Shown here piece by piece: positions 1-30,575 of a stretch of DNA of 41,501 bases. This DNA is from a virus. Location of the stretch: the IMG/VR virus record IMGVR_UViG_3300033463_000341, positions 1 to 41,501 of that record; one strand, written 5' to 3'. The notes under the pieces are model-generated. The model was not told the DNA's origin, did no database searches, and worked only from the letters and a program-made list of their open reading frames with translations. The translations under genes were made by a program, and so were the position numbers. Position 1 is the stretch's first letter. The number at the start of each line of letters is the position of its first letter.

Positions 1-127
1 GATTGTGTTAATATTTACTTGTTTTGCTATTGAAATTGTGTCTTTATCAAATAAGTTCTTACCTGTACTTTTATCAATTTTATCTTGATAAGTATCTATT
101 TTACATAATTCTATTGGTGTAAAATAT
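1..127. repeat. Terminal direct repeat, identical to 41375-41501 (circular-contig overlap)
   Basis: The string gattgtgttaatatttacttg...ggtgtaaaatat occurs at both ends. 127 nt equals a commonly used maximum assembler k-mer, so this is most likely an assembly overlap of a circular or circularly permuted genome. Confidence 0.9.
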
Positions 128-2133
128 GGAGCATAACTACTGGCTGTTGAGCCTCTTTCTATTTGTGGTCTAAAAACATAATTTGTAAATGTTCTTCCAC
201 TTGGTATATAAATCCACATATAATAATAATCATATCGTGCCAAATTTCTTGCAACATAAGGGTCAGCCGTTGTACTAAATAAAGTTACTGCGTTCTCACC
301 TTGATTTTTTCCATACAATATTGTAGTAAATGTGCCTCCTGTTTGTGTACCTGTGTAATTTCTACTAAATGTTATTGCATCAGAAGGTAAGTCATACATA
401 TCATCACTTATTTTTATAGAAACCGTGTCAGATGTTGTTCCATTAAATGTAAATGTTCCATCGCCATTGTTAGTTATTGTAAAATCTCCAAATGTTTGAC
501 TACTTATACTATCAATGCTTAACAAATTCTTACCTAAATTAATCTCATAAGTGTTACCTTGATATGCTTGATATTCGGTTTTACTAGAGCCTTTTTCAAT
601 TTGAATACCATTTAATATTTGTTGTTCGGTTGATGTATCTCCATTTATCCAAAAATAAACTATTAAATATTTCGAATTGCTATCACTAGTGACAGTTAGT
701 GTTTTCCCACTATCATTAGTACTTACATTTTTAACTTGTACTCCACTTGCAGGTAATACATCAGTTGTTCCTGCTCTAAATCTATTAGATGTAATTTGTT
801 TTGATATGGTATATGTTGTATTTGGTTGTATAGGAATATATATACTTCTTACATTATTGTTTACTGTAATACTATCACTAGCACTAAAAGAACCATTTAT
901 AATGTTTGCATTGTCTTTATCAAATAAATTCTTTCCACATACTATTACTTCTTGTCTACCTGTTACTGTTTCAACACTCTGTGGGTAACTAGGATTTGGA
1001 CTTGGTTGTCCACCAACATAAGGTTCATAATCATTATATGTTGCTGTTAAATCAGATGTTATCATTGGTTTTAAAAGTGCATTTGTAAATCTAACACCTT
1101 GTGCTATTGATAACGATAATTTACCAAATGTTGTAAATGTTATTGTTGCACCATTACCTGTATCTCTATTACCCCATACACCATCAAATCTTGTTGCTAA
1201 ATAATATGTATTGTCACTACCACCTGCAGGACAACCTACTACTTTATATGTTCCACTTGGTATTGTATTTATAGGAAAAAAATCTATACTAATACCACTC
1301 GTTGCTTGTCCGTTTAATGTATATGTTCCATCTCCATTATTTGTAAGAGTTACGCCATTTACTGTTGTCGTGGCTGTATTATTATCAAATAAATTCTTTC
1401 CACTATATGTTTGTTGGTATGTATCGCCTAACACTTGTATTTCAGCACTATCACCATCATTATAAGCAATGTATATATTTTTACCTTCTATTTCAATTTC
1501 ACTTATTGTAGTGTCATTAAAATATCTTATTTCTAATTCGTCATTTTCATTTATACAAATTGCACTAGCTGTAACTTGTGCTAATTCATCTAATACATCT
1601 CTATATGTATAGCCATAAGATTTCCCTTCAGAAGATAAGTATAATTCACTAGGTATTGTTTTATTATAATTAGCAAAAACATTATTCTTATCTTTAAAAG
1701 TTAGCCCTAATCGGCTACATATAGCATTTATATAATCTTTAATGCTTATTGGATACTCAACACCTAAACTCTCATATTCTTTCATAGAATATAACATTTT
1801 ATCATAACACAATAAATTAAAATATCCGGTTTCTTTTTCTTCTTCTACTTCATAAACAATAAAATTGCCATAATTTAAATATTCATAGTTATTATTTATT
1901 TTAGCACCAAAATTTAAATTTAAAATAGTGTCTTTAGATATTTTCCTATCAATTTTGATTTCTAATTGTTTCATTATTGATTTTAAAATGTCACCATTAA
2001 CGGAATACTTTAATCTTTTTATATTGTCGCCGTTTAAAGTTATGGTGTTTCCATTATCATTATAAGTAATAATAGCTTCGGTTTCTCTTATATCTTTAAT
2101 TTTATTTTTAAAATCTTGTGTATGTGTTCTCAT
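1..2133 (-). CDS. Large tail-tip / receptor-binding protein, N-terminal part (711 codons). The gene wraps the contig junction and continues at 41374..39068, about 1479 aa in total
   Basis: ATG at 2133 overlaps the upstream stop (TAATG). Hand translation gives MRTHTQDFKNKIKDIRETEAIITYNDNGNTITLNGDNIKRL... The frame stays open wherever sampled (2133-1381, 940-910, 540-510, 240-1) and is in frame with ORF 39068..41368 through the 127-bp repeat. It is absent from the ORF track because it has no in-window stop. Confidence 0.85.
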   Translation of the reverse strand, partial: MRTHTQDFKNKIKDIRETEAIITYNDNGNTITLNGDNIKRLKYSVNGDILKSIMKQLEIKIDRKISKDTILNLNFGAKINNNYEYLNYGNFIVYEVEEEKETGYFNLLCYDKMLYSMKEYESLGVEYPISIKDYINAICSRLGLTFKDKNNVFANYNKTIPSELYLSSEGKSYGYTYRDVLDELAQVTASAICINENDELEIRYFNDTTISEIEIEGKNIYIAYNDGDSAEIQVLGDTYQQTYSGKNLFDNNTATTTVNGVTLTNNGDGTYTLNGQATSGISIDFFPINTIPSGTYKVVGCPAGGSDNTYYLATRFDGVWGNRDTGNGATITFTTFGKLSLSIAQGVRFTNALLKPMITSDLTATYNDYEPYVGGQPSPNPSYPQSVETVTGRQEVIVCGKNLFDKDNANIINGSFSASDSITVNNNVRSIYIPIQPNTTYTISKQITSNRFRAGTTDVLPASGVQVKNVSTNDSGKTLTVTSDSNSKYLIVYFWINGDTSTEQQILNGIQIEKGSSKTEYQAYQGNTYEINLGKNLLSIDSISSQTFGDFTITNNGDGTFTFNGTTSDTVSIKISDDMYDLPSDAITFSRNYTGTQTGGTFTTILYGKNQGENAVTLFSTTADPYVARNLARYDYYYMWIYIPSGRTFTNYVFRPQIERGSTASSYAPYFTPIELCKIDTYQDKIDKSTGKNLFDKDTISIAKQVNINTI

Positions 2134-9846: not shown

Positions 9847-10351
9847 AATTTTCCTCCTTTATATAATAACCATAGTTTTGGTCCTTATATACGTTTTTTA
9901 AATATGGATACCTTTGTTTCATTAGTTCATCTGTTAAATCGTCTTGTTTGTGTATTTCATATACATTATCTTCTTCTATTCCTTGTGGGTTTAAATAAGG
10001 TACTGCCACTATCATTTCTTTACACCTATTTAAAGCATATTTTAAGACTTCTTGTGCTTCATTTGCTTCCAGATGCTCTACTACATCGCCAAATATAATA
10101 ATGTCATAATAGTCGTATTTAAAGTCCTTTATATTGACATTATAAACTTTATTATATTTACTTTCTAGATTAAAGTTATCAATGTTTGGTTTAAATACTT
10201 CTACTGCTTCTATATTATTAAAATAATCATGCATATAGTTGTAGTAAGTTCCTTCTCCTGCACCAACGTCTAGTACCTTTGCGTTTCTATCAAAGTTTCT
10301 TTTTAAATAATTTGTTATTTCTGTTTTATAAACTGCATATGATGTTGCCAT
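9815..10351 (-). CDS. Class I SAM-dependent methyltransferase
   Basis: Motif I is VLDVGAGEGTY. The downstream acidic motif is IIIFGDVVEHL. 1-nt overlap with the glycosyltransferase stop. Confidence 0.8.
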   Translation of the reverse strand: MATSYAVYKTEITNYLKRNFDRNAKVLDVGAGEGTYYNYMHDYFNNIEAVEVFKPNIDNFNLESKYNKVYNVNIKDFKYDYYDIIIFGDVVEHLEANEAQEVLKYALNRCKEMIVAVPYLNPQGIEEDNVYEIHKQDDLTDELMKQRYPYLKNVYKDQNYGYYIKEENYEKLFSKSIN

Positions 10352-12078
10352 TATATTTGTCTATACCTCCAATCCTTTAATTCGTCCCATTGTTGATTAA
10401 ACTTCTTTTGTACATATTCTTTGTATTGCTCATTCTTTGTTGTTTTGATGAAATAATACATTTCTCCTAAATGTTTATAAATGCTCATTTCCCACATTGC
10501 TTCACGTTTTGTTGTTACGCTTGTGGTATTACTTCTGTTCCATACGTGAGTTGACTCGTTCAAACAAGTAAAACTTTTTGCCTTTTCACATAACCTATAA
10601 TGTTGTACTCTATCTTCGGCAAGCGTACTTTCTGGGAATAGAGTATCTTTCATTAGTTCTGTTTTAACTACTTTTGTCCATATTGCACATACGTTATCGG
10701 TGAACGCTTGATACATATTTTCAAAGTTTGGTCTAAACGGATATAATCCCTCAACGCCGTTGCTTCCTAATTCAAATCCTAAAAACATTATATCTTCATC
10801 TTCTAAATTATCATTTATATCTTTTAATACGTTTTCGTGTTTTAACCAATCATCACTATCAATGCATACTATATAATCTCCTGTGGCTTCCATTATACCT
10901 ATATTTCTTGTTCCACCATTATATTTTTTAAATGGTACTTTTAATACTTTGTGTCCTTTTAGCATTCTATTTGCTATTTCTAAAGAATTATCTTCACTCA
11001 TATCATCAATAAATATAATTTCATAATTTGTATATGTTTGTTTTAAAACGCTACCCAAGCACTTTTCTAGCCATCTAGCATTATTATAGTTTGGAATTAT
11101 AATACTAAATTTGTAATCATGTTTTGTTACTGGCTCTATTACGTTTAACCATTCTTTTGCATAATCAGGATACTCATACTTAAATCCTTTTTTCAAGTTT
11201 TCTATTGCATCTAAATCTAAATTAGATAAATCTTTCTTTACTACATATCCTTTACCATTAGTCAATTCTTTTATTGCATTTGGAAAATCAGTACACACAC
11301 AAGGTGTTCCTAATATTAAACTTTCATACATTACCATACATTGGCTTTCATAATCTGATAATTGCCATAAGCTATCAGCCCACTTCATATATTTATACGG
11401 ATTATCTTGTTTTCCTAACCATATAATATTATAATCTTTTAATTCTTGTTTTAATTGGTTGCCATATCCTGGATATAAAATATTACTTCCAATTACAACA
11501 AATTGGTAGTCTTTGCCATACTTACTTTCACATTTGTCAAGTACGCCTTTTAATCTAGGATAACCTTTTTGAGGGTCAATTCTACTAACAATTAAGAAAT
11601 TATGTTTTTTCTTTGGTATATCAACTTTTTCTTTTGCAAGTTCTCTTATTTCTTCTGCATCAATTATATTTGGTATAACAACGCAGTCTTTACCTTTTCG
11701 TTCTTTGAACTGTTTACTTGCTTCTTCTGATACTGCCACATATTTTTTAAATGGTATAGTTTCTTCATAGTTTTCATTACTATCTATTAAACATCCATTT
11801 ATTACTTGTATGTAATTATTTTTTCTTGCTTTTACTTTCTTTAAATTATAAACCGCATCATATATAACCCAGTCAAATACTTCATCTTTGCATACATCAA
11901 GATGTCTTACATTACCAATAGTAGCCCATTTTTCAAGCATATCCAAAGGACTATCGTTGCTTGCATAAACAAATGTTATTTCATGACCCTGCTTCTTTAA
12001 ATATTTACCACGAGCATACATTGTTTTTTCTACTCCACCAGTTTCAAATGGTCGAGTATAATACATCGCTATCTTCAT
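10351..12078 (-). CDS. Bifunctional glycosyltransferase (N-terminal GT-B/GT4-like, C-terminal GT-A/GT2)
   Basis: The GT4-like half has ETGGVEK and an E-x7-E motif (YESQCMVMYES). The GT2 half has FSIIIPNYNNARWLEKCLGSVLKQTYTNYEIIFIDDMSEDNS and a DSDD (DxD) motif. The start at 12078 (MKIAMYY) has a GGGTGA RBS. The track's 5' extension would include the promoter -10. Confidence 0.85.
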   Translation of the reverse strand: MKIAMYYTRPFETGGVEKTMYARGKYLKKQGHEITFVYASNDSPLDMLEKWATIGNVRHLDVCKDEVFDWVIYDAVYNLKKVKARKNNYIQVINGCLIDSNENYEETIPFKKYVAVSEEASKQFKERKGKDCVVIPNIIDAEEIRELAKEKVDIPKKKHNFLIVSRIDPQKGYPRLKGVLDKCESKYGKDYQFVVIGSNILYPGYGNQLKQELKDYNIIWLGKQDNPYKYMKWADSLWQLSDYESQCMVMYESLILGTPCVCTDFPNAIKELTNGKGYVVKKDLSNLDLDAIENLKKGFKYEYPDYAKEWLNVIEPVTKHDYKFSIIIPNYNNARWLEKCLGSVLKQTYTNYEIIFIDDMSEDNSLEIANRMLKGHKVLKVPFKKYNGGTRNIGIMEATGDYIVCIDSDDWLKHENVLKDINDNLEDEDIMFLGFELGSNGVEGLYPFRPNFENMYQAFTDNVCAIWTKVVKTELMKDTLFPESTLAEDRVQHYRLCEKAKSFTCLNESTHVWNRSNTTSVTTKREAMWEMSIYKHLGEMYYFIKTTKNEQYKEYVQKKFNQQWDELKDWRYRQI

Positions 12079-12094
12079 TTTATCACCCAGAGTA

Positions 12095-12103
12095 ATTATA
12101 TCA
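12095..12103 (-). promoter_or_regulatory. Extended -10 promoter motif TGATATAAT (class II)
   Basis: The minus strand reads TTTTTATGATATAATTAC immediately after a terminator and 17 nt upstream of the ATG at 12078. Confidence 0.45.
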
Positions 12104-12132
12104 TAAAAATAAAAAGGTGTAAAATACACCTT
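12104..12132 (-). terminator. Intrinsic terminator after gene 12131..12487
   Basis: The minus strand reads AAGGTGT-ATTTT-ACACCTT followed by TTTTATTTTT. The stem overlaps the stop codon. Confidence 0.7.
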
Positions 12133-13605: not shown

Positions 13606-13623
13606 ATTTTATCTTTCTCCTTT

Positions 13624-13657
13624 CATAAATAAAAGAGATAGAACTATGCCTATCTCT
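13624..13657 (-). terminator. Intrinsic terminator-like hairpin after gene 13729..14553
   Basis: The minus strand reads AGAGATAG-GCATAGTT-CTATCTCT followed by TTTATTTAT, then the RBS of the next gene. Confidence 0.6.
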
Positions 13658-13728
13658 CGTTTTCCCATTAAAGGGAATTTCGTTAGCAAGTTCTCGTAAT
13701 CGAGCGTGTCGTAATCGACTATATGCTA

Positions 13729-14553
13729 TTAAATAAATTGACTTGATGTACCATATCCACAACCACATCCATTGTTGTTGCAAGTGAATATTGGTGTTCT
13801 ACCATAAACTGGTGTTGATGGTACTGGGCAGTTGCTTAATCTATTGTATAAAGCATCTACTTCTTCAATTTGTCCTTGTCTTAATTGAGCAGTTTGTGCT
13901 AATTGACTTGCTTGTAAATCTTTCATTAAGATTTCTCTTTGAAGGTCTACAATCTTATCGTTTTTAGCATCAATCTTATCTTGGCATAATTGGTCAAGAA
14001 CTCTTTGAACATTAGCAGTTTGGTTAGCAATAATATCTCTTATGCCATTACTTAATGCTTCTCTATCAGCACAGTTTTCACTAATAACAGTTGCTTTTAA
14101 GTCTTGAGTTGCAAGACGATTTTCACAGCAACAGTTCAATAACGAAGTATTTAAACCATAGAAGCCATTAGAAACTGCTGAAGTTATATCTGCTGTACTA
14201 TTGCACAACTGATTAGATAAACCATTTATAGCATCTCTATTGCCTTCTAATTGGTTAGATAAATGTAATGTGTCAAATCCATTGTTAGTGTTATTCATAA
14301 TATCTTTTTGACCATTAGACAACCAAGCAAATCCATTATCGAAACTATTTCCACCAAAGAAACCACCATTACCATTGTTTCCCCAACCACCGAATAATGC
14401 TAATAATAAGATTACCCAAATGAAGTCAGAGCCATAGCCACCAAATCCACCATTACCAAATCCACCCATCATAGGATAAATTGGATAAGCATAACCGGCG
14501 TTGTTGTTAGTTGCTAGGTCAACAGTAGGAACTATTCCTGAATTTCCATTCAT
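13729..14553 (-). CDS. Gly-rich membrane-anchored protein with a Cys-containing coiled-coil ectodomain
   Basis: 274 aa. The N-terminus has GGFGNGGFGGYGSDFIWVILLLALFGGWGNNGNGGFFGG (one TM helix in a Gly-rich context). It then has a CCC triplet (LLNCCCENR), a long Gln-rich helix and a C-terminal CNNNGCGCGYG. Confidence 0.7.
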   Translation of the reverse strand: MNGNSGIVPTVDLATNNNAGYAYPIYPMMGGFGNGGFGGYGSDFIWVILLLALFGGWGNNGNGGFFGGNSFDNGFAWLSNGQKDIMNNTNNGFDTLHLSNQLEGNRDAINGLSNQLCNSTADITSAVSNGFYGLNTSLLNCCCENRLATQDLKATVISENCADREALSNGIRDIIANQTANVQRVLDQLCQDKIDAKNDKIVDLQREILMKDLQASQLAQTAQLRQGQIEEVDALYNRLSNCPVPSTPVYGRTPIFTCNNNGCGCGYGTSSQFI

Positions 14554-17081: not shown

Positions 17082-17486
17082 TTATTTCATTATATTTTCT
17101 ATTTTTTGCCATTCTTCTTCACTAATAATGCCTCTATCATATTTTTCTTGTAAGTTATAATAACATTGTTTTAGGTATCTATTGTTGTGTTCAAAATAAA
17201 TTGGATTTGTATATTTTGCATAATTATCAAAATCTTCTTCACAAAACTCTAATATTTCATCATAATATTTATTTTGATGTTTTATTCCTCTAATAGTCAT
17301 TTGAGTATCAATTTTAGAAACATAATTCATAAAATATTCTTTACTGTATTTCATAACATAACTAACTAACCTATGTTTCAATGTGCCTTTCTCCCATTGT
17401 CTTTTAATAGCAATGCACTCACGCCATTGACTTACCAACATATCTTTTGGTAATACTGGAATTAATTTATAATGCCACAATCTCAT
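17082..17486 (-). CDS. TIGR02328-type protein related to pyrimidine-dimer DNA glycosylases (T4 DenV-like)
   Basis: The N-terminus MRLWHYKLIPVLPKDMLVSQWRECIAIKRQW matches the MRLWH..LI..LP...L..Q.REC signature as I remember it. 134 aa. Confidence 0.5.
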   Translation of the reverse strand: MRLWHYKLIPVLPKDMLVSQWRECIAIKRQWEKGTLKHRLVSYVMKYSKEYFMNYVSKIDTQMTIRGIKHQNKYYDEILEFCEEDFDNYAKYTNPIYFEHNNRYLKQCYYNLQEKYDRGIISEEEWQKIENIMK

Positions 17487-17498
17487 ATTTTATTCCTC

Positions 17499-17846
17499 CT
17501 AATTATTCTCAATAATAACCCATGGTTCTTTTTTGCCACTTGCTAACCAACCTGTTTGACCTTCATCATATATAACTTTATACCAGTTATAACTATTACC
17601 TTCGTGATATTCAACAGCCTTATATTGTTCACCTTTGTACACTTTTTTAATTACATCACTATCCAAATCAATTTCAGGTCTTAAATTAATAAACTCATTG
17701 TCAATTGTTATAGTATATATAACTTGATTTTCAAGTTTTTTAGCCTTTCTTTTTAAATCATTAGCGTAACTTACACGCCCAATTAAAGCACCAATAAATA
17801 ATGCAATTACTATGAAGCCAAACATTCTTAATTTTTCATTTTTCAT
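17499..17846 (-). CDS. Membrane-anchored bacterial SH3-domain protein
   Basis: N-terminal TM helix (FGFIVIALFIGALIG). The C-terminus YKGEQYKAVEYHEGNSYNWYKVIYDEGQTGWLASG is SH3b-like. Confidence 0.65.
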   Translation of the reverse strand: MKNEKLRMFGFIVIALFIGALIGRVSYANDLKRKAKKLENQVIYTITIDNEFINLRPEIDLDSDVIKKVYKGEQYKAVEYHEGNSYNWYKVIYDEGQTGWLASGKKEPWVIIENN

Positions 17847-17869
17847 TATTTTCTCCTCCTTCTATATAC

Positions 17870-17898
17870 ATATTAGCACTTTATAAAAAATATGTCAA
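17870..17898 (-). promoter_or_regulatory. Sigma-A-type promoter (class I): TTGACA-N17-TAATAT
   Basis: The minus strand reads AAAAAAGTATTGACA TATTTTTTATAAAGTGC TAATAT, about 25 nt upstream of the RBS of 17499..17846. It has the same A-tract/-35 context as the early promoters. Confidence 0.6.
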
Positions 17899-17935
17899 TA
17901 CTTTTTTAATACTTTTTTAATATTTAATATAAAAA

Positions 17936-17963
17936 TACAAAAAAAGAAGCGTGGTGGCGCTTC
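17936..17963 (-). terminator. Strong intrinsic terminator of the ncRNA unit
   Basis: The minus strand reads GAAGCG-CCACCA-CGCTTC followed by TTTTTTTGTATTTTT. Confidence 0.8.
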
Positions 17964-18403
17964 AAAAGGTTTTACATTAGTGCCTATTTTATAAGCACTG
18001 GACTAATGATATATTTACACATTTTAGGCTCGCTAGCCTCCCTACTTTTAGAACCTCTAAACAAGATACACTCTCGAGATAGACCTTATTCTCTTTTCTA
18101 AAGTATTGTAAATAGGTCGATTATTTATATCATCAGTACACTACCTATAAAAGATAGTGCTATATGTAGTTAGCGTCTACATATACACAAAAAAACGATA
18201 TAGACAACCCCTGTAAACTATATCTAAACAGGAGATTGAATAGTGCCTATTATAAGCACCACATAGAATAGATAAAAGATACGAACCATAGGGTTTAAGC
18301 CTACGCCTTTTCTATCAGTTGAGTTTAAATCAACTTGCATTATCTACTCTATGTGCTACCTACAATGGTAACACTCGAAAATGCAATTAGTTTTCGCTAA
18401 TGC
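17936..18403 (-). ncRNA. Candidate large structured non-coding RNA (~470 nt), class unknown
   Basis: ORF-free stretch, relatively G+C-rich, bounded by its own promoter and terminator. Many helices are readable by eye, including a 16-bp long-range stem and an H-type pseudoknot. G-U pairs occur only in the minus-strand reading. Confidence 0.6.
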
Positions 18404-18409
18404 AATTAT

Positions 18410-18418
18410 ATTATATCA
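18410..18418 (-). promoter_or_regulatory. Extended -10 promoter motif TGTGATATAAT (class II) for the ncRNA
   Basis: The minus strand reads GATGTGATATAATATAAT. The motif overlaps the TGA stop of 18416..19636. Confidence 0.5.
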
Positions 18419-19636
18419 CATCAATTTACTTTTTGCAACTTTTTTATATCCACTAACTTTCATTCTTTGTGCTTTAGTAGGTAAACCACTTATTTCACTT
18501 AATTGTTTATACTTATTTGTAAGAATTCTTATATTTTCTTGTGACTTTGCTATAAGTGGCTTATTATCACTTGCTTTGGCAAGTATTTGAATATCTTTTT
18601 GTTCTCTAACGGCACGTTCAATATTTCTTTGCATTTGTGTGCCTTCATAATTAGTATAGTGTTGTCCTTCAAATTCAAAACCATCATCATTTTTTTTAAT
18701 TATTTCTTTAAGTTCTTTATCTGTATATTCAGGTTCACTAACACCTAACACAATGCTAAATATGTAGTGATAACAATTCATTTCACTAATAGGACGATAG
18801 CCATTTTTATGGTCATGGTCTAAAGTATAAGTGTTGCCCTTATAGTCTTTTGCCTCAAGCCCACTATTTAACTTTTTATATTCTTCTATGCTAAATTGTC
18901 TACCTTGTACTTTTTCGTGGTCAATAGCCGGATTAGAGTGAACAGATATTTCATAACCATCAGCACCTATTTCTTCGCCAATAATTTTTTGATTTTCGTT
19001 ATGTAATTCCCTCAAATCACTTTTAAGTTCCATTCTAATAGCACTATCTAATCGCATACTTCTACCACTAGCGTAGTTTATAGTCCTTAAACCACTTCCA
19101 CCGACTTGTTTTAATATACCACTCATAGCTTGGTCAAATGTTTCTTTACCTTGCCCTACATTTAATAATGCAGTATCTAGCAATTCATTGTAAACATCTC
19201 TTAACCCCATAAATTTGCCATTTATAGTATAACCAAGCACATTTGAACGTGTAAAATCATACATTTTATTTTTAACTATATTAGACAATGCCATAGTTTG
19301 CGTTTTTAATGCCATATTTTGCTCGAAAGGTGTAAAAGGTATATCTTTATACTTGTAGAACTTTTCGTAGAATAATTGGTCATTTTTTGCATAATTATAG
19401 AATATATTATCTATATCAGCAATGTCTAAATTAGTATATTTGGCAATTTGTTTAACTATATCTTCGTATTTGCCACCATATTTAAGTATTTGTGCCAGTT
19501 GTTGAGCTTGGCTTGGCGTTAATTCACTTATTTTTTTAATAGAAGAACCAATACTTTCTAAAAACGTGGTATTGGCTTGTTCTATTCTATCAATTAATCT
19601 TTCAATAACTTGTTCTATTTGATTTTCAGTTATCAT
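18416..19636 (-). CDS. Head morphogenesis / minor capsid protein (SPP1 gp7 / Mu F-like)
   Basis: 406 aa, immediately after the portal gene. Size and position are typical of MuF-like proteins. Confidence 0.7.
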   Translation of the reverse strand: MITENQIEQVIERLIDRIEQANTTFLESIGSSIKKISELTPSQAQQLAQILKYGGKYEDIVKQIAKYTNLDIADIDNIFYNYAKNDQLFYEKFYKYKDIPFTPFEQNMALKTQTMALSNIVKNKMYDFTRSNVLGYTINGKFMGLRDVYNELLDTALLNVGQGKETFDQAMSGILKQVGGSGLRTINYASGRSMRLDSAIRMELKSDLRELHNENQKIIGEEIGADGYEISVHSNPAIDHEKVQGRQFSIEEYKKLNSGLEAKDYKGNTYTLDHDHKNGYRPISEMNCYHYIFSIVLGVSEPEYTDKELKEIIKKNDDGFEFEGQHYTNYEGTQMQRNIERAVREQKDIQILAKASDNKPLIAKSQENIRILTNKYKQLSEISGLPTKAQRMKVSGYKKVAKSKLM

Positions 19637-27965: not shown

Positions 27966-29165
27966 TTATTCACTTGCTTTAAAGTTGTATATTGGTTTAA
28001 TTATTTTTTCAACCTCAACAGTATCTTTAATGTGTTCAATTATTTCTTCCATTGGTTTATATACCATAGGAGCTTCATCTATTGTTTCTTCATTTACTGA
28101 TGTTGTATAAATACCATTCATAGAATTTTTATAATCTTCCATATTTAAAGTTTGTCTTGCAATGTTTCTTGACATTGTTCTTCCTGCTCCGTGTGGTGCT
28201 GAATAATTCCAATCTTCATTGCCTTTCCCAATTCCTATAATGCAACCATCTCTCATATTCATAGGTATAATTACTTTTTCACCTTTTCTAGCGGATATTG
28301 CGCCTTTGCGAACTATATTATCTTCAAAATTAATATAGTTATGAATACATTGAAAGTATGGAACACTATCTAAGCCACCAAACCCCATATTGTATAAAAT
28401 AATGTTTGCTATACTACTTCTATTTACCACAGCAAAATTTTGACATTTTTTCATATCGTGTAAATATTCTTTTCTATCTTTACCTTCCAAATAACACAAA
28501 TCTTTAGGTAGTTTTGTTTTGCCGTTATATTTATTATTTATATCAATTAATGCTTGTTGTATTTCTTTTTCTTTGCCTTGTTCTTTATATTCTTTAATTA
28601 TTCTATTTTTTTCTTCTTGCATTTCCATTTTATAAGAACAATATTCTATTGCTTTATTTTGATATATTTCAGCAACTTGTTTTCCTAAATTTCTTGAACC
28701 TGTATGAATAACTAAATATTTATTATTTTCATCATCAGCATCAATTTCAATAAAATGATTACCGCCACCTAAAGTTCCTAATGACTTTTCTAACCAATTA
28801 TCTTTATTTTTTAACTCTTTGTAACAATATAAATCTTTAAAATCAACATCATTTTTATTTTCTTGATGTACATTCATTCCACTAGGTATATATTTCCTTA
28901 TGATTTCATCTAATTTATCAAAATCAATATCAATATTACCTAATTCAACACATAACATTCCACAACCAATATCTACACCAACTATATTTGGTATTACTTT
29001 ATCGCCTAAATTACCTGTAAAACCAATTACACAACCTGCTCCTGCGTGAACATCAGGCATAATTCTTACTTTACAATTTTTAAATGCTTCTTGTTCTAAT
29101 AATAAGTCTATTTGTTCTTTAGCACTTTGTTCTATATTGTTTGTAAATATTTTTAAATCTTTCAT
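27966..29165 (-). CDS. rtcB: RtcB-family RNA ligase (3'-phosphate/5'-hydroxyl)
   Basis: 399 aa with the full RtcB motif set: MPDVHAGAGCVIG, GGGNHFIEI, HTGSRNLG, CIHNY and SAPHGAGR. Confidence 0.92.
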   Translation of the reverse strand: MKDLKIFTNNIEQSAKEQIDLLLEQEAFKNCKVRIMPDVHAGAGCVIGFTGNLGDKVIPNIVGVDIGCGMLCVELGNIDIDFDKLDEIIRKYIPSGMNVHQENKNDVDFKDLYCYKELKNKDNWLEKSLGTLGGGNHFIEIDADDENNKYLVIHTGSRNLGKQVAEIYQNKAIEYCSYKMEMQEEKNRIIKEYKEQGKEKEIQQALIDINNKYNGKTKLPKDLCYLEGKDRKEYLHDMKKCQNFAVVNRSSIANIILYNMGFGGLDSVPYFQCIHNYINFEDNIVRKGAISARKGEKVIIPMNMRDGCIIGIGKGNEDWNYSAPHGAGRTMSRNIARQTLNMEDYKNSMNGIYTTSVNEETIDEAPMVYKPMEEIIEHIKDTVEVEKIIKPIYNFKASE

Positions 29166-29168
29166 CTC

Positions 29169-29552
29169 TTATTCATCTCCTTTGCTTTTAAGATAATCTA
29201 TTATTTCATTTTGCTTTAATTCTATTTTTTTAAGCATTTTATGTAAATTATGTTCATCAATATTATTGTCTTTAAGTAACGATTGTAGTTCATCATAAAT
29301 ATCTAATTTTTCAGGTATTTTCTTTTCTTCTTCTAGGATTTCTACTTCATTGTCTAAAATATTAAAAGCTTCATAATCAACACAAGATGATAAATAACCA
29401 TACAATTCAGTTTTTTCATCATAACATCTATAATCTATTACAGTTTCTTGTTCAAAATATTCATAAATAAAATCTTTATATTTAATTTTTTTTGGCACTT
29501 CTTCTCCATTTGCTATTTTATTTAATAAATCAATTACACGAATTGTTTTCAT
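29169..29552 (-). CDS. Hypothetical acidic protein (127 aa)
   Basis: RBS TGGAGGTTTGTAGATG inside the 3' end of the HNH gene. Confidence 0.6.
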   Translation of the reverse strand: MKTIRVIDLLNKIANGEEVPKKIKYKDFIYEYFEQETVIDYRCYDEKTELYGYLSSCVDYEAFNILDNEVEILEEEKKIPEKLDIYDELQSLLKDNNIDEHNLHKMLKKIELKQNEIIDYLKSKGDE

Positions 29553-30072
29553 CTACAAACCTCCATATATAACCATTAGCAGTTTTTCTTTTACCATTAC
29601 AACACATATTTATATTACTAGCACTATAACCTAATTCATAATAAGGTGAATAACTGCTATTCCATATTCTTATTAATTCACCACTATGTTTATCTAATTG
29701 TTTTATCTTTCTAGGTTTTAATCTAGGTCTTTTTAATTTTAATCTATATGCTTCACTTTCGTTATAACCATAATCACACCATTCTAAATTGTCTAATGAA
29801 TTATTTAACTTATTCCCATCTTTGTGATTTATACAAGGTAAATTATTAGGGTTAGGAATAAATGCTTGTGCTAATAACTTATGTATTGTTCTACTATACA
29901 CTTTTCCACAATTCATAAGATTAACTATTTTATAACCTTTATTAGAAATAGAACCTTTTAAAATAATTTCTTTTGTACCTTTAAAAGTATTTGTACTTTT
30001 TACTTCACCATTACGATTTATATAATAACCTTCAAAATTTCTAATAGGTTTCCACTCATCTATTATTTTCAT
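29530..30072 (-). CDS. HNH homing endonuclease (NUMOD4 + HNH_3 type), free-standing with its own promoter
   Basis: The start at 30072 (MKIIDEWKPIRNFEGYYINRNGEVKS) has AGGAGGTATAAAATG. HNH core is INHKDGNKLNNSLDNLEW. The track's 18-codon extension covers the promoter. Confidence 0.8.
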   Translation of the reverse strand: MKIIDEWKPIRNFEGYYINRNGEVKSTNTFKGTKEIILKGSISNKGYKIVNLMNCGKVYSRTIHKLLAQAFIPNPNNLPCINHKDGNKLNNSLDNLEWCDYGYNESEAYRLKLKRPRLKPRKIKQLDKHSGELIRIWNSSYSPYYELGYSASNINMCCNGKRKTANGYIWRFVDENNSCN

Positions 30073-30096
30073 TTTATACCTCCTCTTGTTAATACT

Positions 30097-30126
30097 ATTA
30101 TAATACTTATTTAATACTATTGTCAA
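30097..30126 (-). promoter_or_regulatory. Sigma-A-type promoter (class I): TTGACA-N18-TATAAT
   Basis: The minus strand reads AAAAAAGTATTGACA ATAGTATTAAATAAGTAT TATAAT. The -35 element overlaps the stop of 30123..30575. Confidence 0.6.
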
Positions 30127-30575
30127 TACTTTTTTGATAATAATTCAATTATTTTTTTACCCATGTCTTTTTTAGGGCATACAATAAAACGAATATCATA
30201 TTTTTTCTTCATAGTTACCATTATTTTTAATAAAGTAGAACCTTTAACCTTTGTATGAACTGATGACCAATTTTTAATATCTTCAGCAGATTTTATTTTG
30301 TTATCTTGTATAAGAAATATAAAGTTGCTGCAACCTAATTCTTTGGCTTTTGCTATTTCTCTTTTAATACGCTCATGTTCACTAGTTCTGCAAAGATTAC
30401 CACTTAATTCAAGCAATCCGTCTTTCTTGTCTATAATTGTGTCAAAATTTTTATAAAGCATATAATCACCTGCATCAAGTTTTGAAATGATGTAATCTTG
30501 ATTAACTTTATCAAAATATTCAAGTATTTTCTTATTGCCTTTTTCACGAGTGTCTACAATTATTAAATTGTTCAT
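30123..30575 (-). CDS. ERCC4/XPF-Mus81-type nuclease (possible junction resolvase)
   Basis: 150 aa with IIVDTRE, LDAGDYML and IIDKKDGLLELSGNL, corresponding to the VDxRE / GDY / ERKxxxDL motifs of ERCC4 domains. Confidence 0.6.
   Translation of the reverse strand: MNNLIIVDTREKGNKKILEYFDKVNQDYIISKLDAGDYMLYKNFDTIIDKKDGLLELSGNLCRTSEHERIKREIAKAKELGCSNFIFLIQDNKIKSAEDIKNWSSVHTKVKGSTLLKIMVTMKKKYDIRFIVCPKKDMGKKIIELLSKKY

Follow-up and report, generated by a model that had tools for sequence, protein, structure and literature searches.

A probable small RNA gene with two tandem frame-and-cargo units in a phage genome, members of an apparently uncatalogued RNA family

Several described systems surround a structured RNA with a conserved pairing element or place it among viral tRNA genes. 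In the precursors of rRNA and tRNA and at the RNase III sites of phage T7, the flanks of an embedded RNA pair into a leader-trailer stalk, a continuous duplex of at least 20 bp being the canonical RNase III substrate, and in T7 and lambda the residual hairpin after cleavage stabilises the flanking product. Viral small RNAs that are not tRNAs also lie in, or are fused to, tRNA-like genes and are matured by the tRNA-processing machinery, e.g. the stable RNAs (species 1 and 2) of the T4 tRNA cluster and the TMER of MHV68. Type III toxin-antitoxin loci (ToxI-like) are composed of tandem near-identical repeats of approximately 36 nt, followed by a gene for a ToxN/AbiQ-type endoribonuclease. The RNAs ROOL (RF03087) and GOLLD (RF01998) are found in Firmicutes phages and prophages and in metagenomes from gut and rumen, in many cases close to a tRNA island; a tRNA can be present in their variable linker, and conserved complementary or palindromic loops mediate RNA-RNA contacts (bioRxiv 10.1101/2024.12.08.627333). 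The bacterial Y RNAs (YrlA, YrlB, Yrn1) build a conserved stem from their 5' and 3' parts, carry a variable module and occur as tandem genes; in some of them the module mimics the D and T arms of tRNA, and a link to an RtcB-type RNA repair locus has been described (PMC4201824). In Salmonella, rtcB lies in one operon with rsr and the Y RNAs (PMC4201824, PMC7790460).

In the present study, a locus with features of several of these systems was analysed in the window, i.e. the whole stretch of viral DNA considered here (41,501 nt of IMG/VR record IMGVR_UViG_3300033463_000341). The locus is very probably a small non-coding RNA gene of approximately 466 nt on the minus strand, composed of a promoter, a leader, unit 1, a linker, unit 2 and a terminator, the two units being tandem members of an uncatalogued "frame-and-cargo" family in phages of low-G+C gut and rumen Firmicutes. 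First, the stretch at 17847-18415 contains no minus-strand ORF of 40 aa or more and is, in agreement with the preliminary description, the longest internal gap on the coding strand. The single larger gap, at 1-2132, holds coding-like sequence with internal direct repeats of approximately 870 nt and looks like a gene running off the window end and not like a second RNA locus. The G+C content of 17936-18418 (0.333) is higher than that of the whole window (0.276) and of the downstream genes, but the contrast that had been reported does not extend to the upstream gene for the MuF-like minor-capsid protein (0.28-0.355). Second, the minus strand of the region folds at -141.6 kcal/mol (z -6.61 against shuffles), compared with -105.9 kcal/mol (z -3.44) for the plus strand, consistent with the structured minus-strand RNA that had been suggested. 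Third, both proposed transcription signals were recovered by a signal scan: a sigma-70-type promoter-like site on the minus strand at 18410-18438, with the -35 element TTGCAA (18433-18438), a 17-nt spacer and the extended -10 element TGTGATATAAT (18410-18420), and an intrinsic minus-strand terminator at 17936-17963 (GAAGCG-CCACCA-CGCTTC, then T7), which is also present in the fold. The promoter-like site (TTGCAA-17-TATAAT with an upstream TG, 10 of 12 matches) extends over the minor-capsid stop codon; right behind this codon, three homologous loci (L016, L029 and L009) retain the motif TGATATAATTAAATTG. The order in the window is promoter, RNA, terminator and downstream genes, the first of which encodes a 115-aa SH3_3 protein; TerS, TerL and an RtcB RNA ligase are encoded elsewhere in the window. 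Judged from its sequence, the gap very probably holds a genuine non-coding RNA gene that is transcribed on its own.

The region was found to be an internal duplication, and the single ornate RNA of approximately 470 nt that had been envisaged gives way to two tandem units of 137 and 181 nt. In each unit, hairpin A is followed by the 5' strand of a long helix, a cargo, the 3' strand of the helix and hairpin B; in other words, a conserved frame of approximately 60-70 nt surrounds a hypervariable structured insert. Unit 1 (18239-18375, minus strand) has a type-1 frame, with hairpin A at 18353-18374 (GUGUUACC-AUUGUA-GGUAGCAC), the helix strands at 18340-18352 (5') and 18260-18275 (3') and hairpin B at 18243-18259 (GUGCU-UAUAAUA-GGCAC). 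The 16-bp long-range helix noted previously (18260-18275 with 18340-18355) is present in the minimum free energy (MFE) fold and corresponds to the conserved long helix of this unit. The cargo of unit 1 (18276-18339) forms two hairpins with the 7-nt loops UUUAAAC and CUUAAAC, both of which fit the Y-U-NNN-R-N pattern of an anticodon loop or T-loop, with UAA at positions 34-36. No relative of this cargo was observed in the collected loci, and a pattern scan of metagenomes returned eight chance matches and no homologue. Unit 2 (17979-18159, minus strand) has a type-2 frame, with hairpin A at 18139-18159 (CACUAUC-UUUUAUA-GGUAGUG), the helix 5' strand UACUGAUGAUAUA at 18126-18138, a cargo of 112 nt at 18014-18125, the helix 3' strand at 18001-18013 and hairpin B at 17979-17999. 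The twin hairpins reported at 18243-18259 and 17979-17999 are thus real and represent the conserved hairpin B of the two units. Neither hairpin A of either unit nor the duplication itself figured in the preliminary description.

The remaining parts of the locus are far more variable. The minus-strand leader (18376-18403) carries a lineage-specific hairpin that is present in the fold, and homologous loci have a hairpin of different sequence at the same position. The minus-strand linker between the units (18160-18238) contains the complementarities of a possible H-type pseudoknot (18197-18234) and a 9-bp hairpin (18161-18185), and the insert of unit 2 contains a stem with a tetraloop; these elements, like the 5' hairpins, can be found in the sequence as had been proposed, but their sequences are not kept in the homologous loci. 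Four of these loci (L016, L004, L029 and L008) have linkers of 40-110 nt with no sequence relationship, each with some hairpin just 5' of unit 2. As judged from the homologous loci, all four elements (pseudoknot, 9-bp hairpin, tetraloop stem and 5' hairpins) thus belong to cargo, linker or leader parts that are specific to a lineage.

The evidence for the frame comes from its pairing. Four strands can be distinguished, of which s1 and s2 form hairpin A and s3 and s4 form hairpin B, both hairpins flanking a helix of 13-15 bp. Loops A and B are complementary to each other, as are s2 and s3, so that the nucleotides of the frame can also extend the helix into a rod of approximately 26 bp, with one G-G mismatch and three conserved G-U pairs. 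In the long helix, pairing reaches 98.7% across 70 units, with two-sided changes at 8 of 13 pairs. The pairing of loop A with loop B holds in 91.5% of cells, compared with 35-65% in slid registers, and one loop pair is U-A in 175 units and A-U or G-U in 12 and 2 units, respectively (Fisher p = 3.5e-17). The entire rod is 94.3% paired in 68 mostly type-1 frames, with compensatory changes, and 97.1% paired in 49 type-2 frames, a set not selected by DNA pattern, in which 19 of 26 pairs change on both sides and no shuffle matches (0/500). Variant strands of the hairpin stems also pair with their own partners, in 42 of 55 cases for hairpin A (cross control, 30%) and in 32 of 41 cases for hairpin B (cross control, 23%). 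Because both hairpin stems covary as well as the rod, the frame looks bistable, with the rod and the two hairpins as alternative folds. The rod is the predicted MFE form in 94 of 127 frames and the more stable of the two forms in 91 of 127, by a small median margin of 2.9 kcal/mol. For unit 1 alone, the MFE structure is the extended rod (-50.9 kcal/mol versus -47.3 kcal/mol for the two-hairpin form), and the preference is reversed in unit 2, where the two-hairpin form is favoured. A directed scan for the B-loop variants UUGYAA and UUACAA yielded few loci and mixed results (compensatory in L272 and L133, wobble pairs in L268 and L271, inconsistent in L267), and the question of loop pairing was settled by the larger tabulation and the type-2 set. 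The consensus of the 5' strand is CAUAGAGUAGAUAU in type 1 and GUACUGAUGAUAU in type 2; a hammerhead, suggested by CUGAUGA in the type-2 strand, was rejected, as this motif is base-paired in the helix and matches no hammerhead model.

The strand of the RNA is indicated by the same data. Unit 1 matches the covariance model R1 over its full length on the minus strand (61.2 bits, E 5.8e-12), compared with 28.3 bits on the plus strand, in every locus the gene strand outscores the opposite strand by approximately 25-30 bits, and a conserved wobble pair is G-U in 58 units, A-U in 9 and G-C in 1, which supports the earlier assignment of function to the minus strand. R1 aligns only the 3' half of unit 2 because the insert of this unit is 112 nt long; unit 2 was detected as type 2 alongside approximately 50 other type-2 units. 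The alignment of the window with four related minor-capsid loci (A1) contains four conserved blocks in the same order, with blocks 1 and 2 resembling blocks 3 and 4; the latter two, which represent unit 2, are nearly invariant. The frame sequence is very strongly conserved among phages whose minor-capsid proteins share only 48-74% identity. The homologous regions of the related phages are non-coding and show abundant compensatory changes, as anticipated for a structured RNA.

In other phages, the unit is found alone or in arrays of 2 to 5 copies, in many cases amid tRNA genes. A pattern scan placed the family in at least 119 IMG/VR contigs, a genome scan gave 35 matches, most of which were confirmed by the covariance model, and approximately 30 prophages in gut and rumen MAGs of low-GC Firmicutes carry it; cmsearch with the filters off performed worse on long-insert units and was not used. 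No family of Rfam 15, ROOL and GOLLD included, matched the window at the gathering thresholds, and 17700-18600 at E<10 gave chance matches only (12-20 bits, compared with gathering scores of 60-100). A search of 11 homologous loci against Rfam returned nothing on the units, and BLASTN of the region and the consensus frame against 50,697 GenBank phage records gave no true match, the sole hits being chance 26-nt matches in Klebsiella phages. Full-text searches of the literature with conserved sequence strings revealed nothing relevant; a 2023 catalogue of approximately 10,000 candidate structured RNAs from viruses may contain the motif. Apparently, these units represent a new, previously uncatalogued RNA family, a modular phage RNA unit.

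The genomic setting was derived from fragments of 15 kb or less. The flanking genes on both sides are co-oriented with 90 units and opposed to 1, and all 41 tRNAs within 500 nt of units lie on the same strand. Of 150 arrays, 36 (24%) have a promoter-like extended -10 element within 150 nt upstream and 44 (29%) a terminator within 150 nt downstream, compared with 7.7% and 3% of control windows, respectively. Some units abut tRNA genes with gaps of 0-12 nt, and approximately 72% of units are in loci without a tRNA inside the stretch fetched. Among the gene clusters that flank the units, those for minor-capsid, portal, scaffold, capsid, terminase, HNH, resolvase and glycosyltransferase proteins are the most common. 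The most frequent location has the minor-capsid gene on one side and scaffold and major-capsid or accessory genes on the other, and close relatives differ in the presence or absence of the element. The inserts are hypervariable, 141 of them falling into 110 clusters, and cargo families are kept between phages and show compensatory changes and tertiary complementarity of their own. The cargo contains an excess of tRNA-like hairpins (22 versus 6.0 +/- 2.4 in shuffles), and ARAGORN calls tRNAs in 3 inserts at default settings and in 8 at relaxed ones. One cargo (L121) encloses a complete tRNA-Trp, two tRNA-like cargoes (L037 and L051) take the inner helix as their acceptor stem, and approximately 13 of 139 inserts (approximately 10%) have a T-arm-like hairpin whose end is 1-3 nt away from the 3' strand. 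Most units are without a tRNA-like domain of D and T arms, and some are almost cargo-free, with 0-5 nt beyond the helix and the frame retained.

Herein, we tentatively propose that the unit might serve as a cassette for double-stranded RNA processing, by which small RNAs are excised or presented, a reading that we hold with rather less than even confidence. In this proposal, the rod would be a processing stem comparable to the stalks of rRNA and tRNA precursors or the T7 RNase III sites, and a double-strand-specific nuclease of the host, most plausibly RNase III, would cut it. Cleavage would free the cargo on the conserved basal stem, and the outer strands thus released would refold into hairpin A at the new 3' end of the upstream product and hairpin B at the new 5' end of the downstream product, capping these ends against exonucleases. 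The cargoes, i.e. tRNAs, tRNA-like hairpins and many other compact folds, would then be the effectors. The family, its strand, the two alternative pairings, the cargo diversity and the genomic context are shown by the data described above; the cleavage, the refolding and any role of the cargo are inferred. The 26-pair rod, paired at 94.3% and 97.1% in the two sets of frames, is a near-continuous flanking duplex of at least 20 bp, as expected for an RNase III stem, and the units that abut tRNAs, the nested tRNA-Trp, the use of the inner helix as an acceptor stem and the T-arm-like hairpins are counted as possible links to processing. As in the processing stalks, the 5' and 3' flanks of an embedded structured RNA pair with each other, in sense orientation inside polycistronic transcripts and beside tRNAs. 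In contrast to these stalks, a portable, near-invariant unit is reused here around more than 100 unrelated cargoes, and its two alternative terminal hairpins are in turn maintained by covariation. Five observations temper the processing-cassette proposal. The conservation of the frame, loops included, goes far beyond the needs of RNase III recognition and points instead to a sequence-specific partner; a pure role in cargo delivery fails for the nearly cargo-free units, to which a processing or insulator site would be suited; most units (approximately 72%) come from loci in which the fetched stretch contains no tRNA; kissing between molecules explains the covariation of loops A and B equally well; and the energetic advantage of the rod is small and turns around in unit 2 of the window. 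With regard to the viral RNAs matured by tRNA-processing enzymes, we know of no sequence or structural similarity of T4 species 1 and 2 or TMER to the frame units, and a conserved frame with swappable cargo is without counterpart there.

Among the alternatives, a protein-binding scaffold akin to the Y RNAs is unlikely but deserves the most attention. The frame would bind one conserved protein, of host or phage origin, with high affinity, and the insert would be an effector or adaptor, sometimes a tRNA mimic; the unit as a whole would remain a stable, unprocessed small RNA and act on this protein as a tether, sponge or decoy. The strong conservation of the frame across phages with such diverged minor-capsid proteins and its retention in nearly cargo-less units would fit this model, a free small RNA would gain stability from the hairpins at its 5' and 3' ends, and the architecture, with a conserved stem, a variable module, tandem paralogues and a tRNA-like subset, resembles that of the bacterial Y RNAs (PMC4201824). 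However, bacterial Y RNAs are encoded within approximately 4 kb of an rsr (Ro60/TROVE) gene, and neither such a gene nor another recurrent RNA-binding gene was observed in the most common flanking clusters or in the 39 proteins of the window that were scanned, which represent the majority of its ORFs of at least 70 aa. The Ro-binding motifs GNCGAA(N0-1)G and GGUCCGA are, as read by eye, absent from the stem 5' strand in the type-1 and type-2 consensus. The T arm lies 5' of the D arm in YrlA, whereas the order in the frame family is D then T; only approximately 10% of units are tRNA-like, and the frame hairpins and the alternative rod have no Y RNA counterpart. Membership among the Y RNAs was rejected on the basis of the missing Ro gene, the missing motif and the arm order. 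The RtcB ligase of the window might also speak for a scaffold, but RtcB is unlinked to the units and was dropped as a partner, as only 2 of 80 RtcB-encoding loci in IMG/VR have a unit within 10 kb. Moreover, a scaffold leaves the compensatory upkeep of the rod pairing unexplained.

A more speculative reading, which we consider distinctly improbable, regards the frame as a natural portable RNA "display" scaffold that toggles between the rod and the two-hairpin form. The latter would multimerise via the co-evolving A and B loops and present a fast-evolving library of structured cargo, including mimics of tRNAs or anticodon loops, e.g. the two UAA-type loops of the window, that could decoy tRNA-targeting or RNA-sensing host defences. 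If this were the case, the units would represent a new RNA-based counter-defence or assembly system, which would be more than a processing site.

Self-assembly as such has only a slim likelihood. In this model, loop A of one unit pairs "hand in hand" with loop B of another, forming dimers, rings or filaments from which the cargo helices radiate, similar to the packaging RNA ring of phi29 or the homo-oligomeric cages of ROOL and GOLLD. The two loops are complementary over 5-6 nt and covary, the two stems remaining unrelated, and on geometric grounds an intramolecular kiss of two linkerless 5-6 bp hairpins at one junction is implausible; thus, if both hairpins formed, the loop pairing would have to be intermolecular. 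The units frequently lie beside portal, minor-capsid and scaffold genes or just upstream of terminase, and the niche in phages and prophages, near tRNA islands and with a variable region that sometimes holds a tRNA, is common to ROOL and GOLLD (bioRxiv 10.1101/2024.12.08.627333). On the other hand, the paired loops continue directly into s2:s3 and the long helix, so that a simple intramolecular rod explains the covariation, which was observed within units and does not separate pairing in cis from pairing in trans; the kiss, being all A-U or G-U, would be weak. The phi29-type pRNA (RF00044) shares with the units a phage origin, proximity to portal and head genes on the side of the frame units, and a three-helix layout in which two hairpins with mutually complementary loops accompany a long helix. 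The strand connectivity differs, as the hairpins lie outside the long helix here, and hypervariable cargo and tandem arrays are peculiar to the frame family. No match to RF00044 was found, and the window encodes TerS and TerL, whereas pRNA accompanies a terminal-protein/gp16 packaging system that lacks a small terminase; with both terminase subunits, the phages studied here do not require a packaging RNA.

It is just as doubtful that the units are purely cis-acting elements of the late (head) operon, i.e. intergenic RNA stabilisers, insulators or processive-antitermination signals in which a terminal loop has expanded into an insert that is tolerated and largely neutral. The sense orientation within operons, most commonly between the minor-capsid gene and the scaffold, major-capsid or accessory genes, the variable presence among close relatives and the gene order in the window would all be expected of such an element. 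However, many arrays have their own promoter and terminator or lie inside tRNA arrays and not in mRNAs, the cargo families are conserved with their own compensatory changes and tertiary complementarity, and the enrichment of tRNA-like hairpins argues that the insert is not neutral.

A DNA-level element, i.e. a miniature inverted-repeat or hairpin-end mobile element or a recombination site with arms around variable DNA, is very improbable. The frame is quasi-palindromic with arms of approximately 30 nt, the cargo is variable, presence and position are polymorphic between related phages, and HNH endonuclease genes sometimes adjoin. Against this stand the one-sided orientation (90 to 1 for genes and 41 to 0 for tRNAs), the three G-U pairs and the G-G mismatch, which become A-C and C-C on the other strand, where the model scores approximately 30 bits lower, and the promoters and terminators that flank arrays. 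Copies within one phage differ by compensatory changes and are not near-identical, unlike those of a MITE or an IS200-IS605-type hairpin element, and no transposase, HUH or recombinase gene is associated in the flanking clusters. Likewise, no reverse transcriptase indicative of a retron msr-msd was found in the flanking clusters or the window proteins scanned, and a ToxI-like array is not consistent with units of 90-300 nt, unrelated inserts and the SH3_3 gene downstream in the window. Finally, one autonomous large ornate RNA of the ROOL or GOLLD kind, for which the fold of the whole stretch (z -6.6) and the phage-borne, low-G+C Firmicute setting might be cited, is scarcely credible and, on the present sequence comparison, already contradicted, since there is no Rfam match, a unit of approximately 140-180 nt is duplicated internally and found alone elsewhere, the leader, linker and inserts are not conserved, and, in contrast to the 500-800 nt of ROOL and GOLLD and their single conserved multi-domain structure of more than 500 nt, the units have a simple three-helix or rod architecture, tandemly repeated, with a small conserved part (the duplicated frame), a dominant variable part and no covariance-model match for the frame family.

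Provided that the family is real, which the comparative evidence strongly indicates, it is a frequent RNA element of phages from gut and rumen, present in hundreds of contigs and named in no catalogue. Its design is unusual in that a sequence-invariant frame, with two folds kept by covariation, surrounds more than 100 unrelated structured inserts, tRNAs among them. For genome annotation, the family accounts for "empty" intergenic stretches of 0.3-1 kb in the head-gene modules of these phages. The frame is small enough for direct biochemistry, and, should it prove to be a self-contained cassette for processing or capping, it could serve for the expression of arbitrary small RNAs in Firmicutes. 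Moreover, the family offers a handle on the question of why the tRNA islands of phages carry structured RNAs that are not tRNAs, such as ROOL, GOLLD and the stable RNAs of T4.

The longest internal coding-strand gap of the window (17847-18415) lies between two minus-strand genes, the upstream MuF-like minor-capsid gene (PF06152, 18416-19636) and the downstream SH3_3 gene (115 aa, 17499-17846). As noted in the preliminary description, this stretch contains no minus-strand ORF of at least 40 aa and is relatively rich in G+C (0.333 vs 0.276 for the window), and scanning of the minus strand recovered both proposed signals, a promoter-like site (TTGCAA-17-TATAAT with an upstream TG, 18438 to 18410) and a terminator (GAAGCG-CCACCA-CGCTTC plus T7, 17963 to 17946). 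The predicted fold of 17936-18418 reached -141.6 kcal/mol (z -6.6) on the minus strand and -105.9 kcal/mol (z -3.4) on the plus strand. The motif TGATATAATTAAATTG follows the minor-capsid stop in the window and in L016, L029 and L009, which belong to the loci of other phages and MAG prophages compared with the window (L numbers). Another promoter-like site on the minus strand (17870-17898; TTGACA-17-TAATAT, upstream TG) lies just 3' of the RNA terminator, where it might drive the SH3_3 gene independently of the RNA locus. In several related phages the RNA arrays end in a different terminator from that of the window, the hairpin GAACAUAGAAAUAUGUUC followed by a U-run (L016 7620-7660, L004 5925-5955, L010 8085-8105 and L020 8320-8350).

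Minor-capsid relatives with 48-74% identity are encoded in 32 IMG/VR loci, several of which contain the non-coding region according to nhmmer. When the window was aligned with L016, L008, L004 and L029, four near-invariant blocks were observed, separated by unalignable sequence; blocks 1 and 3 resemble each other, as do blocks 2 and 4, and thus the region is a tandem duplication of one small unit rather than the single large ornate RNA previously envisaged. Each unit comprises, in order, hairpin A, (G)CUACC-UUUAUA-GGUAG(C), the 5' strand of a long helix, CAUAGAGUAGAUAU, a variable insert (the cargo), the 3' strand of the helix, AUAUCUAUUCUAUG, and hairpin B, GGUGC-UUAUAA(n)-GCAC; the two hairpins and the helix form the conserved frame. 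Unit 1 occupies 18239-18375 and unit 2 occupies 17979-18159, both on the minus strand. Unit 2 has a second version of the frame (type 2), which reads CACUAUC-UUUUAUA-GGUAGUG, UACUGAUGAUAUA...UAUAUCAUUAGU, AGUGCU...GGCACU, and its helix differs from that of type 1 by compensatory changes, the G-U wobble and the inner GAUAU/AUAUC being unchanged. All of the local helices described previously are present in the sequence, and two kinds are conserved: the 16-bp helix is the frame helix, and the twin GUGCU...GGCAC hairpins are hairpin B. The sequences of the others are not conserved, namely the pseudoknot and the 9-bp hairpin (both in the linker), the tetraloop stem (in the unit-2 cargo) and the alternative 5' hairpins (in the leader), although a hairpin recurs at the positions of the 9-bp hairpin and the 5' hairpins in homologous loci. 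That account mentioned neither hairpin A nor the repeated make-up of the region.

The locus consists of two small modular units belonging to a family that is widespread and unnamed. Matches to the pattern TATCTATTC-N3-6-GGTGCTTATAA occur in at least 119 IMG/VR contigs and in 35 stretches of a species-representative genome set, most of the latter being MAGs of human gut and rumen origin labelled uncultured Bacilli, Tenericutes, Erysipelotrichaceae, Coprobacillus or Clostridia, in which the ORF layout looks like that of prophages. A covariance model built on the frame (R1) confirmed units in the MAG loci and, on the gene strand every time, in the minor-capsid loci. Of 160 arrays found by regular-expression search, 99 consist of one unit, 52 of two and 9 of three, and among the doubles type 1 followed by type 2, the window's own order, is the most frequent; type-2 units were found at about 50 loci, and L008 carries five consecutive units directly 3' of tRNA-Pro, tRNA-Ser and tRNA-Ser. 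The R1 search found no further full units in the window. At 13613-13681 (minus strand) a weak match (14.8 bits, E 0.24), made up of a hairpin (GAGAGAUAG...CUAUCUCUU) and then a U-rich stretch 3' of the ORF at 13729-14553, is probably an ordinary terminator. No nucleotide match to the region was found in INPHARED, no units in GenBank phage records and, in line with the suspicion of a new class, no matching family in Rfam 15; full-text searches of the literature for the conserved strings returned nothing. The family may be among the ~10,000 uncharacterised viral candidates of PMC10690425.

Several observations concern the strand and the nature of the element. First, the earlier assignment of function to the minus strand held, R1 scoring unit 1 at 61.2 bits (E 6e-12) on that strand and 28.3 bits on the plus strand, and the conserved helix wobble is G-U in 58 units, A-U in 9 and G-C in 1, where the opposite strand would have an A-C mismatch. 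Second, both flanking ORFs are co-stranded with the unit in 90 of 139 units and both are opposed in only 1, while all 41 tRNA genes within 500 nt of units are co-oriented. Third, a terminator occurs within 150 nt downstream in 44/150 arrays (3% of controls), and an extended -10 element occurs upstream in 36/150 (7.7% of controls). Copies in the same phage diverge by compensatory changes and are not near-identical, and no transposase, reverse transcriptase or recombinase was observed among the recurrent neighbours. These features indicate that the units act as RNA and not as a DNA element. A few units (L040, L096, L101 and L125) score well on both strands (69.6 and 61.4 bits in L096) because the frame is nearly palindromic; such units could mislead strand assignment in automated surveys.

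Compensatory changes uphold the frame helix across homologous loci. In 70 units the long helix is 98.7% paired, with changes on both sides in 8 of 13 pairs; none of 500 shuffles did as well, and sliding the register lowered pairing to 33-49% of cells. The hairpin stems also covary: where the A 3' strand departs from GGUAG, it pairs with the 5' strand of its own unit in 42/55 cases (30% with the strands of other units), and for hairpin B own-strand pairing was found in 32/41 (23% with the strands of other units). Unexpectedly, loop A (the six nucleotides before GGUAG) is complementary to loop B (the six after GGUGCU), pairing in 91.5% of cells vs 35-65% when the register is slid. At one loop position the pair was U-A in 175 units, with A-U in 12 and G-U in 2 (Fisher p = 3.5e-17); a different position had A-U in 153, G-U in 37, U-A in 3 and G-C in 1; and a third frame variant (L037, L181) has CUUGAU/AUUAAG in place of UUUAUA/UAUAAA, that is, three compensated positions. 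Pairing is also possible, save for one G-G, between GGUAGC (the A 3' strand) and GGUGCU (the B 5' strand), so that the loop pairing extends the long helix into a 26-pair rod. In 68 frames, mostly of type 1, 94.3% of the rod is paired; in 49 type-2 frames chosen independently of the pattern scan the figure is 97.1%, with 19/26 pairs altered on both sides. Changes that favour the hairpins and weaken the rod also exist (GGUUGC with GCAAUC; GUUAGUG with CACUAAC). Together with the covariation of both pairings, these changes suggest that both folds are maintained, and both appear to be kept by selection. In RNAfold predictions the rod has the lower energy in 91/127 frames (median difference 2.9 kcal/mol); unit 1 of the window favours the rod (-50.9 vs -47.3) and unit 2 the two-hairpin form.

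The cargo ranges from ~0 to 230 nt, and 141 inserts of at least 25 nt fell into 110 sequence clusters, 92 of them singletons. One cargo family can occupy either frame type (L040/L103 and L008 unit 5), and cargo families carry compensatory changes of their own, one of them with a 7-nt loop-loop complementarity. In cluster 2 (L051 8776, L071, L092 and L122), which has two hairpins, a GUUCUAU loop is perfectly complementary to an AUAGAAC stretch in the other hairpin's loop, suggesting a kissing loop or pseudoknot inside the cargo. Hairpins of the T-loop or anticodon-loop type (5-bp stem, 7-nt loop Y-U-NNN-R-N) number 22 vs 6.0 +/- 2.4 in shuffles, and about 10% of units have a T-arm-like hairpin ending 1-3 nt 5' of the 3' strand. 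ARAGORN identified a nested tRNA-Trp(CCA) in L121 and tRNA-like cargoes in L037 (a 'tRNA-Glu' without U33) and L051, the inner helix serving as acceptor stem. Cluster 0 (L053, L118 and L152), conserved across an IMG/VR phage and a MAG prophage, is tRNA-like, with D-arm-like and T-arm-like hairpins and ~70 nt inserted at the anticodon-arm position. The unit-1 cargo of the window has two hairpins of the Y-U-NNN-R-N type (loops UUUAAAC and CUUAAAC), and no relatives of it were found in the collections scanned.

Upstream of units the recurrent neighbours are minor-capsid and portal genes, and downstream they are scaffold (phrog_194, DUF4355) and major-capsid genes; genes for terminase, HNH endonuclease, Holliday-junction resolvase and glycosyltransferase recur as well. 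Among close minor-capsid relatives, either units occupy a gap of 0.3-1 kb or the next gene follows within ~100 nt, and this presence and absence indicates that the module is accessory. In L008 and L030 it stands upstream of the terminase genes instead of after the minor-capsid gene, so that, judged from gene order, it changes position between phages. In tRNA-containing loci 41/66 units lie within 500 nt of a tRNA (18% of controls), some adjoining it with gaps of 0-12 nt; 72% of units have no tRNA in the stretch fetched around them. L017, a related phage, carries two distinct structured RNAs 3' of its minor-capsid gene, a frame unit (2805-2930) and, ~150 nt upstream, a skipping-rope RNA (RF02924, 2582-2654, plus strand) at 36.7 bits, exactly the gathering score. 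The replication/recombination module of the window includes a gene for an RtcB RNA ligase (399 aa, 27966-29165, minus strand; PF01139, E 1e-58), adjoining an HNH/NUMOD4 endonuclease (29530-30126) and an ERCC4 nuclease (30123-30575), which suggests tRNA or RNA repair during infection; a unit lies within 10 kb in only 2 of 80 IMG/VR RtcB loci. The RNA locus is separated from the head genes by accessory genes of 'moron'-like character (17082-17846 and 10351-12129, minus strand). These encode the small SH3_3 protein, a pyrimidine-dimer glycosylase resembling T4 endoV (PF03013) and a 592-aa glycosyltransferase in which GT4 and GT2 are fused; in other phages, too, glycosyltransferase genes are repeatedly found downstream of units. 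The ORF listing has no complete entry at 1-2132 (minus strand), where the sequence is coding-like in appearance and carries 25-36-nt direct repeats spaced ~870 nt apart, such as a repetitive tail or fibre protein would show; a long minus-strand gene probably runs off the window start.

In the present study, a strand-specific, transcribed-looking family of structured RNAs with an apparently bistable frame and hypervariable structured cargo has been revealed. Herein, we tentatively propose that the rod is a double-stranded processing stem that releases the cargo, a portable counterpart of the stalks formed by leader and trailer in precursors of rRNA and tRNA. RNase III canonically acts on duplexes of 20 bp or more, and this host enzyme would be the most plausible double-strand-specific nuclease to cut the rod. 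The cut would free the cargo still on its conserved basal stem, and the outer strands, once free, would refold as hairpins A and B, capping the flanking products. This processing reading would explain selection on both folds, the sense-strand location in operons and tRNA arrays, the nesting of tRNAs and the persistence of nearly cargo-less units; the near invariance of the frame sequence is left unaccounted for. A protein-binding scaffold resembling Y RNA is a less likely alternative. A self-assembling RNA joined hand in hand, as in pRNA or ROOL, is improbable, and a purely cis-acting element of the operon is equally so. An element working at the DNA level is very improbable given the compensatory divergence of the copies, and a single large RNA is the least credible of all.

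The element is a member of none of ROOL, GOLLD, pRNA, Y RNA, retron RNA, ToxI arrays and hairpin-end mobile elements; for each of these a defining feature was looked for and was absent. In mode of working the frame and cargo might come closest to a processing stalk, and the family shares its niche, phage tRNA islands, with ROOL and GOLLD, whose variable region can likewise hold a tRNA (bioRxiv 10.1101/2024.12.08.627333). We rate the element as belonging with phage-borne structured RNAs and processing cassettes; the probability that it represents an entirely new category is modest. The finding is real, its nature differs from that first proposed and is more interesting in kind: what is new is an unnamed family with a conformational alternative supported by covariation.
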